IMG/VR virus record: IMGVR_UViG_2718218360_000002
Strand: one strand, 5' to 3'
Origin: a virus
Taxonomy: Duplodnaviria > Heunggongvirae > Uroviricota > Caudoviricetes
DNA length: 64,000 bases
The position numbers are program-made. Shown piece by piece: positions 24,001-33,000 of this stretch. The first letter of the stretch is position 1. Each line of letters starts with the position of its first letter.

Positions 24001-27000
24001 TCAGCATACTGAAGCAGCGCACAAAAAATATTGCGCTGCCACTTCACGTCCACCAGCAACAAAATCCACCACAGAAAAAAACGGTTGTCAGTATCGCCGT
24101 TGATCCGGAGTCTCCTGAATCGTTCATGAAACGACCTAAACGTCGCCGCTGGGTAAATGAGAAATACACACGCTGGGTAAAGACACAGCCGTGTGCGTGT
24201 TGTGGTAAGCCAGCCGACGATCCCCATCACCTGATTGGTCATGGTCAGGGCGGAATGGGGACAAAATCTCACGATATTTTCACGCTACCGCTGTGTCGGG
24301 AGCATCACAACGAGCTTCATGCGGATCCGCTGGCGTTCGAAGAAAAGCATGGTTCTCAGGTTGATTTAATTTTTCGTTTTCTTGATCACGCCTTTGCAAC
24401 TGGCGTGCTTGGGTAAAAGAGGTGACTGATGCTCATAGATTTGGTTTTACCTTACCCGCCGACGGTGAACACTTACTGGCGACGCCGTGGCAGCACATAT
24501 TTTGTATCAAAAGCCGGGGAGCGTTATCGCCGGGCAGTGGCGCTTATTGTTCGCCAGCAGCGACTGAAATTAAGCCTGTCCGGACGGCTGGCAATAAAAA
24601 TTATTGCAGAGCCACCGGATAAGCGCCGCCGTGACCTGGACAATATTCTGAAAGCACCGCTGGATGCGCTGACGCACGCGGGGTTGTTAATGGACGATGA
24701 GCAGTTTGATGAAATCAATATTGTACGTGGAAAGCCAGTATCTGGTGGACGTCTGGGGGTGAAGATTTACCCCATAATGCTTGAAGGGCAGGTCAAAAAA
24801 TGAAACTGGAAGATTTACCGAAATACTACTCCCCAAAATCCCCTGGCCTGACCGATGCATCGGCCTCAACGTCAAAAGATGCGCTGAGTATCACTGATGT
24901 GATGGCCGCGCAGGGCATGACACAGAATCGGGCTGAGATGGGGTTTTCTGCGTTCCTTGGGAAAATGGGCATTAGTATGAATGACAGAGAGCGGGCAACA
25001 GAATTGCTGACAGAATATGCACTCAGTCGGTGTGATCGCGTGGCGGCGTTAAGAAAACTCCCGGCAGAAATAAAACCGGCAGTGATGCGTATTATGGCTT
25101 CGTATGCGTTTGAAGATTATGCCCGTAGCGCGGCGAGCAAAAAACAGTGCCCCTGCTGTCACGGAAAAAAATTTATTGAAAGCGAGGTTTTTACAAACAA
25201 GATCCAGTATCCGGATGGTAAGCCGCCAGTGTGGGCAAAGTGCACAAAAGGCGTGTATCCGTCTTACTGGGAGGAATGGAAAAAAGTCAGGGAGGTGGTA
25301 AAAGTTGCCTGTCCGGAGTGTGGCGGAAAGGGTGAGGTTTCCACCGCCTGTAAGGATTGCCGTGGGCGTGGTGTCGCCATTCATCGTGAAGAGTCGGTAA
25401 AACGTGGTATGCCTGTTATCAGAGACTGCCAGCGTTGTGGTGGTCGTGGCTGTGAAAGACTACCATCAACGGAGGCATTTAATGCCATATGTAATGTAAC
25501 CGATGCCATATCTCTTGATACATGGAAAAAAACAGTTAAACGTTTTTACGATACGCTGGTGGTGCAGTTTGATATTGAAGAAGCATGGGCAGAACAACAA
25601 CTGAAAAAGGTGACCAGATAGCTTTGTTGATTTTTCCCGAATCTGTGGTAAATTTGCCCTAACGATGGGCGTTTTATGCCTGACGTTAGAAGATTTTTTA
25701 CACCCCGCCGCCTGGCGGGTTTTTTATGACTGAAATCGCGTCAGTACAGTAAACGCGCTGGTGGCGGTGAATACCGGTCTTTCAGCTTGCTGGCTTTTTT
25801 GACAAGAGTTATTGGTGTGTCACGTTAACCGAAAAAGGGAAAAAGACATGCTGAAACAGCAGGATATGACAGAAACCGCCAGAGCAGTGTTTAATGAATT
25901 AAGCGTCACCGAACCGGCGACAGTCGGGGAGATTGCGCAGAATACTTACCTTTCACGCGAACGCTGCCAGTTAATACTGACCCAGCTTGTTATGGCGGGT
26001 CTGGCAGACTATCAGTTCGGTTGTTACAGACGCCTTCAGTCCTGAAGGCTTTTTTATTTGTGGTAAATGGGCGGCTGGTGGGTGTTAGGGGCACTCACCA
26101 GCCATCTGCTCATGCGTCTGGATCACAAGCAAACCTCAGGCCCACTGCTTTGCGCAAAAGCAGAATGAGCCTATCAGAGACAGGCTTAATGATCCATGTT
26201 TAACACTGTAAAAATATCCAGTTGTGAGTTGATCAACGCTGACTGCCTGGAATTTATCCGGTCGTTACCCGAAAATTCTGTTGACCTGATAGTCACGGAC
26301 CCGCCGTACTTTAAAGTGAAGCCTGAGGGCTGGGATAACCAGTGGAAGGGCGACGATGATTACCTGAAGTGGCTGGACCAGTGTCTGGCGCAGTTCTGGC
26401 GGGTGCTGAAACCTGCCGGAAGTCTTTACCTGTTCTGTGGCCATCGCCTGGCATCTGACATTGAAATCATGATGCGTGAACGCTTCAGTGTGCTGAACCA
26501 TATTATCTGGGCGAAGCCGTCCGGACGCTGGAACGGGTGCAACAAGGAAAGCCTGAGGGCGTATTTCCCCGCCACAGAGCGCATTCTGTTCGCGGAACAT
26601 TATCAGGGGCCGTATCGTCCGAAAGATGCCGGGTATGAGGCGAAGGGCAGGGCACTGAAACAGCATGTGATGGCTCCGCTGATTTCTTACTTTCGTGATG
26701 CGCGTGCTGCCCTGGGGATAACGGCAAAACAGATAGTGGATGCCACAGGAAAGAAAAACATGGTGTCGCACTGGTTCAGTGCCAGTCAGTGGCAGCTACC
26801 GAACGAAAGCGATTATCTGAAATTACAGGCGCTGTTTGCCCGGGTGGCAGAAGAGAAGCATCAGCGGGGTGAACTGGAGAAGCCCCACCACCAGCTGCTG
26901 GAGACGTATACTTCACTGAACCGGCAGTATGCGGAACTACAGAGTGAATATAAGCATCTGCGGCGGTATTTTGGCGTGACGGCGCAGGTGCCGTACACGG

Positions 27001-30000: not shown

Positions 30001-33000
30001 TTTACTTTCATTTTCTGTCGGCGGTGACGGAGACATACATCAGATGGAAAAAATCACAACAGGTGTGTCATACACCACGTCAGCGGTAGGGACGGGATAC
30101 TGGTTACTGCAACTGCTGGACAAAGTCTCTCCGTCCCAGTGGGTGGCAATAGGTGTACTGGGGAGTCTGCTGTTTGGCCTGCTGACGTATCTGACAAATC
30201 TTTATTTCAAGATTAAAGAAGATAAGCGTAAGGCTGCGAGAGGTGAATAATGTCGCCGTCATTACGCAAGGCTGTTGCAGCTGCTATTGGTGGTGGGGCT
30301 GTTGCCATAGCGTCTGTGCTCATCACTGGTCCAGGTGGTAACGATGGTCTGGAAGGTGTCAGCCACATACCATACAAAGATATCGTTGGCGTATGGACTG
30401 TATGTCACGGACACACCGGAAAAGACATCATGCCCGGTAAAACGTATACCGAAGCAGAATGCAAAGCCCTCCTGAATAAAGACCTTGCCACGGTCGCCAG
30501 ACAAATAAACCCGTACATCAACGTCGATATACCGGAAACAACGCGCGGCGCTCTTTACTCGTTCGTTTACAACGTGGGCGCTGGCAATTTCAGAACATCG
30601 ACGCTTCTTCGCAAAATAAACCAGGGCGATATCAAAGGCGCATGTGATCAGCTACGGCGCTGGACATACGCTGGCGGTAAGCAATGGAAAGGGCTGATGA
30701 CTCGCCGCGAGATTGAGCGTGAAGTCTGTTTGTGGGGGCAACAATGAGCAGGGTAACCGTTATTATCTCCGCTCTGGTTATCTGCATTATCGCCTGCCTG
30801 TCATGGGCTGTTAATCATTACCGCGATAACGCCATTACCTACAAAGCGCAACGCGATAAAAAAGCCAGTGAGCTGAAGCTGGCGAACGTGACAATTACTG
30901 ATATGCAGGTACGCCAGCGTGATGTCGCTGCACTTGATGCCAGATACTCGAGGGAATTAGCCGATGCGAGAGCTGAAAATGAAACTCTGCGTGCTGATGT
31001 TGCCGCTGGTCGTAAGCGCCTGCGCATCAACGCCAACTGTCCAGGCTCCTTGCGTAAAGCCCCCATCACCTCCGGCGTGGATAATGCAACCGGTCCCCGA
31101 CTGGCAGAAGCCGCTGAACGGGATTATTTCATCCTCAGAGAACGGCTGATGGCAATGCAGAAGCAACTGGAAGGAGCACAGGAATATATCCGTACCCAGT
31201 GTATACCGTGATGTTTTGTTATGAAGGTGTTACTGGTAACGTTAAGGTAATTTAACAAAGAGTCAGTTCCGGACTTTATAGTGTGCTCAGTTCATGGACA
31301 AAAACGATTTCTGTGATAAATATTTTGAATATTATTTACAGGTAAATGGAGTGGGGCGCATGGATAGAAATATTACAATAGAGTATGAAGTATATGCCCG
31401 TATTGTATGGGCAGAGAAGGCAAAAACACGGTAATTCCGTGTGTTGCCATGATACCTGATTGGCAGAATAGTTGTTTGGTTTTGAGTATATAGTCAGCGT
31501 TTTTTGTTCAGTAATTGCCCCCTCAAAAAATAATAAAATAAGGTGATTATTTTTGTTTATTATTTAGTTTTTTTGTGTGTTATTTTATTGTTTTTGCGTG
31601 GTTTGTTTTTTATTGTTATTTCATTAAGGGAAGGTAAATTCAGGATGGCAGTCTGTAGATAATCGGAGGTCACTTATGCTACATGATCACGTGGCAGAAT
31701 GTCTGGAGAAAAAAGGACTGTACCGGAGAGCAGCTGAACGATGGGCAAAAGTGATGGTACAGCTAAGTGATGACCAGAAAAGAAAAGTGGCGGCACAGAA
31801 ACGAGCAGAGTGTTTGCGTAAGGCGCGCCGGACTCCGGTTTCACCGGTGAACCTGACCGAAATAAAACAAGCGGTCAACAGACTACATTCTGAGTTGGGA
31901 ATGGGATTTGAAGAGCGGCGGGTATTCCGACGATATAAAGGGACAGGAGAACAGAATACGTCCGGAAACGCGCGGTCAAAAAAATGCTAAAAAATATCTG
32001 AGAGAGTTATTGCCTGTTACCATAAGAAAAAGCGACTTTAGTGGTCGCTTTTTGTGTCATATATAAGTCGTTTAAGTAAACCTGTCTGAACAGGTGCTCT
32101 GGTCGTGTTTGTCTTTGTTGGGTACAAATTGAGAATATTTTTCATTAATTAATCTTCTTCTGCAGGCTTCAATAACCCACGCTGAAAAATTACCTGAACC
32201 TTTCTGGTCAAGAGCGATGTTAATTTGTTCAATCATCTGGTTTGGAAATCGGATGTTGCGGGTTGTTGTTCTGCGGGTCCGGTTTTTCGGTGACATTTTC
32301 TTTCCTCTGGTGACAAGCTATATGGCGAGGATTTTACATGGCCGTGCTTCGTACGTTACCGGGCAGAATCAAAACTCTGAATACCCGGCGGGTGAATGTC
32401 CTGAAGGGGGAACAGCGTCGGGTCAGTGGCAGTGCCCGGGTTTCCCTCAAGCGTCGTATCTGGCTGAGGGATGCCGGACAGTGCTGTCTCTGTGGGCGTG
32501 TGGTTGACCTTTGTGACAGTGAACTCGATCACCGCATTGCACTTCAGTTCGGTGGTGGTAATGAGGAGACGAATCTCTGGACGCTCTGTACCGAATGCCA
32601 TCGCCAGAAGTCAGTCAGTGAAACGGCGAGTGGTATGCCGGACCCGACGCTGCCGGAGGTGTCCGGAGGTCATGGCAGGGCAGACGATATCATCGGACTG
32701 TGACCCGCCCCGGGGGGGGATCATCCGGCGAAAAAACGATCGCCCCGGACACCGCCCCCCGTCTCATGCAGAGAAAAAATTCCTGTTTCAGGCCAGTTAA
32801 CATGTTAACTGGCTGCCCGGGCATTTTTTCGGTTTTTATCTTTATTATTCAGTTTGTTGTGCGAAAAAAATGTTAACTGGCTTTTTCAGCAAATGTTAAC
32901 CAGGCAGCAGTTAACATTTGCGGCATGAGATGCCGGGAAAAATGGGCTGAACCATACCCGGCTGAGTGCGTTCTGGACCCGGGAGGAGGCTGTGCTGACA

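Follow-up and report, generated by a model that had tools for sequence, protein, structure and literature searches.

The 64,000-nucleotide stretch of DNA analyzed here (IMG/VR virus record IMGVR_UViG_2718218360_000002, Caudoviricetes; termed the window) contains the late region of a lambdoid prophage at 24.4 to 31.2 kb. Genes were assigned from a list of open reading frames (ORFs), from Pfam matches, and from the RefSeq annotation of a 100%-identical copy, and all three sources agreed. The last gene before the antiterminator encodes a RusA Holliday-junction resolvase (24429 to 24803, plus strand, as are all the genes of this region; PF05866, E = 1.5e-16). It is followed by the gene for the late antiterminator Q (24800 to 25621), a protein of 273 amino acids with DnaJ-like CxxCxGxG zinc motifs and an Antiterm domain (PF03589, E = 7.6e-50, 167 bits), whose homologue is annotated as quuQ in the Shiga toxin 2a (Stx2a) phage Stx2_EH1910. 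An intrinsic terminator begins 83 nt past the Q stop codon, and the domain and terminator together predict an antitermination function. This terminator, the candidate tR' (25704 to 25725, plus strand; stem 25704 to 25719), was detected by a terminator scan as CCCGCCGCCTGGCGGG followed by TTTTTT and has six G-C pairs. Next come a conserved late-region protein of 65 amino acids (25848 to 26045; from the ORF list), with a terminator at 26032 to 26049, and an N6/N4 DNA methyltransferase of 352 amino acids (26196 to 27254; PF01555, E = 5.6e-44). All of the winged-helix matches of the 65-amino-acid protein in Pfam were below threshold; its gene is also annotated in Stx2_EH1910, PPyecE_EH1910, and Sakai Sp11. 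After a gap of 491 bp (27255 to 27745), nanS-p (27746 to 29596) encodes a predicted 9-O-acetyl-sialate esterase of 616 amino acids, which lies between the moron site and the holin gene and has DUF1737, SASA, and DUF6645 domains (E = 1.1e-15, 1.1e-12, and 4.6e-18, respectively); homologues are annotated as 9-O-acetyl-N-acetylneuraminic acid deacetylase. A second gap of 447 bp precedes the lysis cassette (30044 to 31211), which consists of genes for a class II P21-type holin (30044 to 30250; PF04971), a lysozyme (30250 to 30747; PF00959), Rz (30744 to 31211; PF03245), and the nested Rz1 (30964 to 31149; PF06085). The late architecture, with Q, pR'/tR', a moron site, nanS-p, and S-R-Rz/Rz1, is homologous to that of Stx phages, and the order of genes given by the first-pass annotation was confirmed throughout. 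Terminator-like sites were enriched in this region, with 15 detected by the scan against 4.6 expected.

A candidate late promoter, pR' (25627 to 25654, plus strand), was picked out by eye and may consist of TTGATT, a 16-nt spacer, and the extended −10 element TGgTAAATT. An automatic promoter scan reported no pR' between Q and tR', the candidate matching 8 of 12 consensus positions against a cutoff of 9 of 12.

The 491-bp gap between the methylase gene and nanS-p had been described as the slot where stxAB would sit, holding only a terminator (27505 to 27530) and a 12-bp-stem hairpin (~27660 to 27704) and constituting an empty, structured insertion point. Both structures are real, and their coordinates were refined to a terminator stem at 27503 to 27524 and hairpin arms at 27658 to 27669 and 27691 to 27702, but the word "only" was wrong, as matches to two Rfam families of small RNAs (sRNAs) were found in the gap. 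One is an STnc100-family gene (27334 to 27534, plus strand; RF02076, 150 bits against a gathering score of 47, E = 2.8e-34), which matches the full length of the model (positions 1 to 206 of 206) and ends in its own terminator, formed by the stem at 27503 to 27524 and a U tract; its counterpart in Sp5 is EcOnc27, and PasD is related. The other is agvB (27598 to 27537, minus strand; RF02702, 96.5 bits against a gathering score of 56, model positions 1 to 62 of 62), the gene for an anti-sRNA that sponges GcvB. Its sequence, CGATAACAACACAACAAT..., contains CACAACA, the mimic of the GcvB R1 target, and has a minus-strand terminator at 27562 to 27543 with a U6 tract, in keeping with a motif defined by a 5' variable CACAACA and a conserved 3' region of ~42 nt with a Rho-independent terminator (PMC4104026). 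All 62 positions were identical to those of agvB1 of Sakai Sp10, and the same sequence is present in PPyecE_EH1910. The two genes are convergent, each with its own terminator. The structures that had been read as an empty insertion point are thus parts of known convergent STnc100-like and AgvB genes in the leader of nanS-p. Rfam matches in the gap to GcvB (26.8 bits against a gathering score of 42) and to AsxR (43 bits against 63, overlapping the better AgvB match) were not significant.

This arrangement of sRNA genes is already known. Tree et al. (2014, Mol Cell 55:199, PMC4104026) described a moron-tolerant site 3' of a Q-antiterminated pR' that harbors convergent sRNA genes, and such genes were reported for Sakai prophages Sp3, Sp4, Sp5, Sp9, Sp10, Sp11, Sp15, and Sp17 (PMC4104026). 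AgvB, termed EcOnc01a in Sp10, binds Hfq and pairs with GcvB, relieving repression of dppA, and confers a growth advantage in bovine rectal mucus (PMC4104026). For the identical AgvB sequence it was shown in Sakai that, in the lysogen, an opposite-strand promoter of its own drives the RNA, which sponges GcvB (PMC4104026). A 2026 preprint placed STnc100/PasD-type genes 5' of the sialate esterase gene and PasA/PasC-type genes between the esterase and holin genes, and reported that fewer than 3% of chromosomal PasA copies adjoin stx (10.64898/2026.05.13.724894).

Two further structures lie between agvB and nanS-p. A second plus-strand intrinsic terminator (27623 to 27650; stem 27623 to 27644) was detected by the terminator scan, was kept in 12 of 12 leader variants, and overlaps the putative agvB promoter of the opposite strand. 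The 12-bp-stem hairpin (27658 to 27702, plus strand) has no U tract and is situated 44 nt 5' of the nanS-p start codon. Its fold had an energy of −28 kcal/mol (z = −6.2), and it was also found in Stx1 phages, Sp10, and others, with an imperfect stem being retained over the 12 leader variants. Covariation was weak, amounting to two compensatory pairs that both occurred in one variant and being equaled in 12 of 500 shuffles; as this support is too thin, no claim of a structural RNA is made for the hairpin.

In a multiple alignment of the gap, a conserved leader of ~450 bp was seen to extend from ~27271 up to the start codon of nanS-p. The leader is located ~40 bp past stx1B in Stx1 phages, 41 bp past stx2B in Stx2 phages, past tRNAs in stx-less phi296-type phages, and directly past the Q region in stx-less PhiR12_1. 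As the same leader lies 3' of stxB in real Stx phages, the ~490-bp gap is the right flank of the slot and not the slot itself. Breakpoints and junction alignments placed a module junction and an unoccupied moron point at 27268 to 27300: homology to the Stx2a phage stops at 27267, homology to PhiR12_1 begins at ~27271, and alignment would put the cassettes of the Stx phages, tRNA-stx2AB and stx1AB, at ~27288 to 27300. The leader aligns across Stx and stx-less phages, and hence the vacant moron point is only ~12 bp long. Judged from these alignments, the apparent empty toxin slot is a conserved, sRNA-bearing nanS-p leader.

Searches for the toxin genes were negative. No stx remnant was found in the window by tblastn with Stx1A/B and Stx2A/B (best E = 0.27), a sensitive blastn search of the window with both stx cassettes returned only a 29-bp match to sequence following stx1B, and ARAGORN detected no tRNA gene anywhere in the window. 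The statement that there was neither an stx-like ORF nor a tRNA gene was therefore upheld, and no overlooked remnant was found. The region does not have the stxA-stxB pair 3' of Q and pR' that is characteristic of Stx-converting phages. Deletion scars at the slot, which had been proposed as something to look for, were not observed; junction alignments revealed no scars or direct repeats at the cassette boundaries, and the junction reads straight through, as in PhiR12_1. As layout, terminator, hairpin, and absence of stx and tRNA genes were all confirmed, the original observation was correct at the level of the sequence. How common such an absence is was seen from the 50 closest IMG/VR NanS-p loci with enough upstream sequence: 49 had no stx within 1.5 kb upstream, while an STnc100-like element was present in 48 and an exact AgvB in 21. 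Absence of the toxin is, therefore, the usual state of this architecture.

The region was compared with 50,697 phage records, none of which covered 80% or more of it, indicating that the region is a mosaic. The left module, 24099 to 27267, comprising the end of ydfU, rusA, Q, the 65-amino-acid ORF, and the methylase gene, was 96.4% identical to Stx2_EH1910 (LC567834), and the right module, 27449 to 30250, was 96.6% identical to Stx1a phages, beginning ~205 bp past stx1B. The description of the late region as Stx-phage-like was thus borne out, and the sequence comparisons support an assembly from Stx-phage modules. Each relative departs from the window elsewhere. In Stx2_EH1910 the module common to the two, rusA to the methylase gene, is followed by three tRNAs, stx2A, stx2B, and iraM, and its nanS-p is only ~81% identical. 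The Stx1a phages at yehV (of the Sp15, CP-933V, H-19B, and YYZ-2008 type) are 96.4 to 97.3% identical from ~40 bp past stx1B through nanS-p and the holin gene and have a 12-bp hairpin identical to that of the window, but they have another Q and early region, stx1AB, an unrelated integrase, and an AgvB/AsxR-family sRNA with another 5' seed (40 of 62 score); the module from Q to the methylase gene was not present in the Stx1a phages examined. In the Stx1a phage Stx1_EH1995, the 3' part of the AgvB family is kept (L003 5090 to 5149, corresponding to window 27537 to 27598) and the 5' seed differs (CGATAAAAATGACAATGCAAG...). Much of the ~3% divergence between the leaders of the window and the Stx1 phages appears to fall in this sRNA seed.

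Of the other relatives, the agvB1 locus of Sakai Sp10 also has an STnc100-like gene converging on AgvB, with both directly 5' of nanS-p and 3' of Q, and is 95% identical over the stretch 27345 to 29611; it differs in having a Q of 184 amino acids, no methylase, and a moron cargo of tRNA-Ile, tRNA-Arg, and a TerB-like gene and in being integrated next to ttcA. The same stretch was 98% identical in stx-negative PPyecE_EH1910, and Sakai Sp11 was 97.5% identical over 27735 to 30253. PPyecE_EH1910, the phi296/TL-2011a-type phages, PhiR12_1, and Sakai Sp11 all lack a toxin and follow the order of Q, moron cargo, conserved leader with sRNA genes, nanS-p, and lysis genes, and they differ in the cargo, which is a toxin-antitoxin pair with TerB, tRNAs only, or nothing. 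A methylase gene followed directly by the leader without a tRNA was not seen among the 50 IMG/VR relatives; this combination is nonetheless present in hundreds of Escherichia coli genomes. The window derives from E. coli O157:H7: in a collection of 5,426 complete E. coli genomes, the 5.45-kb region was 100% identical in many O157:H7 genomes and was covered to at least 80% in 666. Sakai Sp10 and Sp11 were ruled out as the source of the left arm of the prophage, as only the nanS-p leader and lysis genes are shared and these prophages have another Q, no methylase, and tRNA/TerB cargo.

The ends of the prophage, which extends over 11202 to 58123, come from two different attachment sites. The right junction (attR) lies in mlrA (yehV), as had been reported: a blastn search of K-12 yehR-yehX against the window and the FRIK2455 left junction identified 58166 to 58099 (minus strand) as nucleotides 1 to 68 of mlrA, with a 25-bp core overlap at 58099 to 58123, and this junction adjoins btsS/yehU. 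None of the remainder of mlrA lies in the window, and the left junction (attL) is a fragment of ompW, namely, a phage-type copy of the ompW 3' end at 11041 to 11201 (plus strand), identified by its match to Sakai Sp9. This copy adjoins the right end of an Sp9-like prophage (window 1 to 11201), which is 100% identical to the right end of Sakai Sp9 over 1 to 1649 and 99.77% identical over 1650 to 11201; the Sp9 match ends at the gene annotated in Sakai as "outer membrane protein W, C-terminal part," and the last 161 bp, which form attL, match the chromosomal copy of ompW at only 86% identity. A second prophage is thus integrated in tandem at the regenerated ompW site, beside the Sp9-like prophage. 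The left-arm integrase (376 amino acids; 11245 to 12375, minus strand; excisionase gene adjacent at 12353 to 12601), taken from the annotation of a 99.99%-identical copy, is not of the yehV type and had no significant BLASTP match to the integrase of the mlrA phage of ECP19-2498 (E = 3.0).

Mismatch maps against two prophages of FRIK2455 located the change of parentage. From position 2 to ~37.5 kb, the window matches, at ~100% identity, the prophage located at 1.82 Mb in FRIK2455, and from 39109 to 64000 it is 100% identical, on the opposite strand, to the right arm of the FRIK2455 mlrA Stx1a prophage at 3.02 Mb. The crossover interval was 36830 to 38378, in the capsid and portal genes, and only the right arm, from ~38.4 kb, is that of the mlrA phage. 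The mlrA prophage of FRIK2455 carries stx1AB, its own Q, and its own integrase, as does that of ECP19-2498. In strain C1-057, two ompW 3' fragments flank this prophage, whose late region there is 100% identical, and yciE comes next; this is its native integration, in tandem at ompW. FRIK2455 has the left arm joined to a ydfJ-side arm, and HB6 has it joined to a potB-side arm. Given the ompW attL, the unrelated integrase, and the placement in C1-057, the late region belongs to an stx-less prophage of the ompW site. Within the interval 37552 to 38000, the window was observed to differ from both FRIK2455 parental copies at the same sites, some of them indel-like.

We consider it highly probable that an stx-less lambdoid O157:H7 prophage, with an sRNA pair at its moron site, has its Q-dependent region for late regulation and lysis at 24.4 to 31.2 kb and that the link to mlrA is secondary, having arisen by recombination. 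The first-pass annotation had instead favored a phage of the Stx1/yehV lineage that sits in mlrA and either never had stx or lost it, leaving an empty insertion point. The right junction in mlrA, the 96.6% identity of the stretch from nanS-p to the holin gene to Stx1a phages, and the existence in some O157:H7 strains of stx-negative "Sp15-like" prophages at yehV (PMC8046923) all agree with such an origin. It is nevertheless scarcely credible, since the left junction is an ompW fragment and the remainder of mlrA is not in the window, the integrase is unrelated to that of the yehV phages, the module from Q to the methylase gene is missing from the Stx1a phages examined, the late region is at ompW in C1-057, the mlrA prophage of FRIK2455 carries stx1AB, and the slot holds AgvB and an STnc100-like gene. 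What survives of the earlier interpretation is that the region resembles those of Stx phages and lacks a toxin; the slot is occupied, and the mlrA phage is not the owner of the late region. A recent descent from an Stx2a phage of the Stx2_EH1910 type, with loss of the tRNA-stx2AB-iraM cassette by deletion or by replacement with an stx-less right module, is somewhat less far-fetched but still improbable. The match to Stx2_EH1910 extends at 96.4% to 13 bp beyond the methylase stop codon, homology returns 41 bp after stx2B at 70% identity, and an exchange of modules by homologous recombination would leave no scar. On the other hand, the sequence to the right of the junction is 70 to 81% identical to that Stx2a phage versus 96 to 98% identical to PPyecE_EH1910 and Stx1a phages, none of the phage records reached 80% coverage of the region, no tRNA or stx fragments were found, the junction reads straight through as in PhiR12_1, and the 49 of 50 NanS-p loci without stx mark the absence as a common one. 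The simplest reading is of a mosaic of a Q-methylase module and a leader-nanS-p-lysis module in which the two together never carried the cassette; this is favored because high identity to both flanks occurs in no known Stx phage, fragments of the toxin genes or of tRNAs are lacking, the two modules meet without a seam, much as in other stx-less phages, and the great majority of such loci are stx-less.

The nature of the join between the two arms is less certain. An uncatalogued, genuine inversion of ~1.2 Mb spanning the terminus (Ter), between the prophage in tandem at ompW and an Stx1/Sp15-type mlrA prophage, is put forward tentatively, together with the idea that the hairpin before nanS-p might be an unrecognized cis-regulatory element of the esterase mRNA. 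In O157:H7, inversions around Ter that span 1.2 to 1.4 Mb and have homologous prophages at their boundaries are well documented (Fitzgerald et al. 2021, PMC8743559), and prophage-bounded rearrangements of this serotype are also credited to Iguchi et al. (2006). The window resembles these in its mismatched attL (ompW) and attR (mlrA), in a crossover within long homologous head genes, and in parental loci that are mutually inverted and flank Ter; it differs in that this join of an ompW prophage to a yehV prophage was not found in the complete genomes searched. The other account, in which the junction of the ompW and mlrA sides is an assembly mis-join over ~20 kb of ~97%-identical head and tail genes and the late region has no physical link to mlrA, is unlikely in our estimation, though it draws on several observations. 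The hybrid is absent from all of the 5,426 genomes, both parental prophages are intact in the near-identical genomes of FRIK2455, FRIK2533, and FRIK2069, and the differences from both parental copies at 37552 to 38000 include indel-like positions. Against a mis-join, genuine O157:H7 inversions with just such boundaries are frequent, FRIK2455 and HB6 exhibit the left arm recombined with ydfJ-side and potB-side arms, and the parental loci face opposite ways and flank the terminus, which is what an inversion calls for. ECP19-2498, 2-6-2, and BB24-1 had been considered as possible carriers of the hybrid arrangement; this was wrong, and ECP19-2498 has an ordinary, intact Stx1a prophage at mlrA.

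Several points weigh against the preferred account of a Q-dependent late region brought to mlrA by recombination. The hybrid join was found at 100% identity in one piece in none of the 5,426 complete genomes, so that the rearrangement is unconfirmed and could stem from assembly across a long, near-identical repeat; the closest genome is recorded under a revised, version.2 accession. The pR' call was made by eye and falls under the cutoff of the scan, and hence the element is a putative one. Expression of the sRNAs in this strain is presumed and that of the late operon is predicted from the sequence. The prophage may also be defective, given that the DUF968 (ydfU-like) gene at 23367 to 24416, 5' of rusA, contains an internal stop codon and is annotated as a pseudogene in identical copies.

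If the preferred account is correct, Q would, on induction, modify RNA polymerase at the late promoter just 3' of the Q gene. In the absence of Q, transcription would stop at tR' (25704 to 25719), while Q-modified polymerase would be expected to pass tR' and the terminators at 26032 to 26049, 27503 to 27524, 27623 to 27644, and 29963 to 29989. This read-through, like the promoter positions, is something we infer; it would express the 65-amino-acid protein, the DNA methylase, NanS-p, and the holin, lysozyme, Rz, and Rz1. The moron position between the methylase gene and nanS-p would have no tRNA-stx cassette but a leader with two convergent, independently terminated sRNA genes, and in the lysogen AgvB would base-pair with GcvB, a core sRNA, at its R1 seed and relieve repression of targets such as dppA. 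The left arm, from the integrase gene to the head genes and including the late region, would derive from the prophage integrating in tandem with Sp9 at ompW, and the right arm, which runs from the portal and tail genes as far as attR, would be that of the mlrA prophage of the Stx1/Sp15 type. Homologous recombination within head genes that are ~97% identical would have united the arms, with a ~1.2-Mb inversion across the terminus as the simplest route.

Such an inversion, if true, would leave both hybrids with mismatched attL and attR sites and noncognate integrases, and neither could then excise. In the reciprocal product, any stx1 late region would be linked to tail genes of foreign origin, so the toxin genes could be locked in the chromosome and release of Stx1 phage altered. 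A real hybrid would be one more example of rearrangements immobilizing Stx prophages. The sRNA pair at the moron site, the function of AgvB, and prophage-by-prophage inversions are all already known, and what is mildly new is confined to the specific join of an ompW prophage to an mlrA prophage, if real. In O157:H7 the majority type is that of stx-less lambdoid prophages with such a late layout, and the region has little weight as a discovery. For annotation, the case illustrates that the phage owning the genes at one end of an O157 prophage cannot be told from the attachment-site junction at the other.

The 447-bp interval between nanS-p and the holin gene (29597 to 30043, minus strand) was resolved by repeat analysis and folding into two tandem units of ~135 to 150 bp, each of which ends on the minus strand in a GC-rich hairpin with a U tract (~29640 to 29598 and 29794 to 29745). 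On the basis of these terminator-like hairpins and the position reported in the literature for PasA and PasC, the units are probably minus-strand sRNA genes of the PasA/PasC type; neither had a match in Rfam 15. Directly past the lysis cassette is a gene (31676 to 31990) for a transcriptional activator of the PerC/Pch family (104 amino acids; PF06069, E = 3.8e-44); pchB occupies a like position in Sakai Sp11, and Pch proteins regulate the enterocyte-effacement locus (LEE), a virulence island. The early region of the same prophage has two further RNA genes, the sok antitoxin RNA beside hokD (22233 to 22407, plus strand; 111.7 bits in Rfam) and the DicF sRNA beside dicB (15751 to 15802, minus strand; 76.7 bits in Rfam). 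The Sp9-like end at 1 to 11201 carries nleA, nleG, espM1, and ISEc8 and is without the nleH1-2/nleF segment of Sakai (L014 4592 to 6265). Two identical copies of ISEc8, an IS66-family element, are present in the window, one at 2690 to 5132 in the Sp9-like region and one at 61651 to 64000, where it interrupts yehR beside the mlrA-side flank; the yehR insertion with this flank is common to only 6 of the 5,426 genomes.

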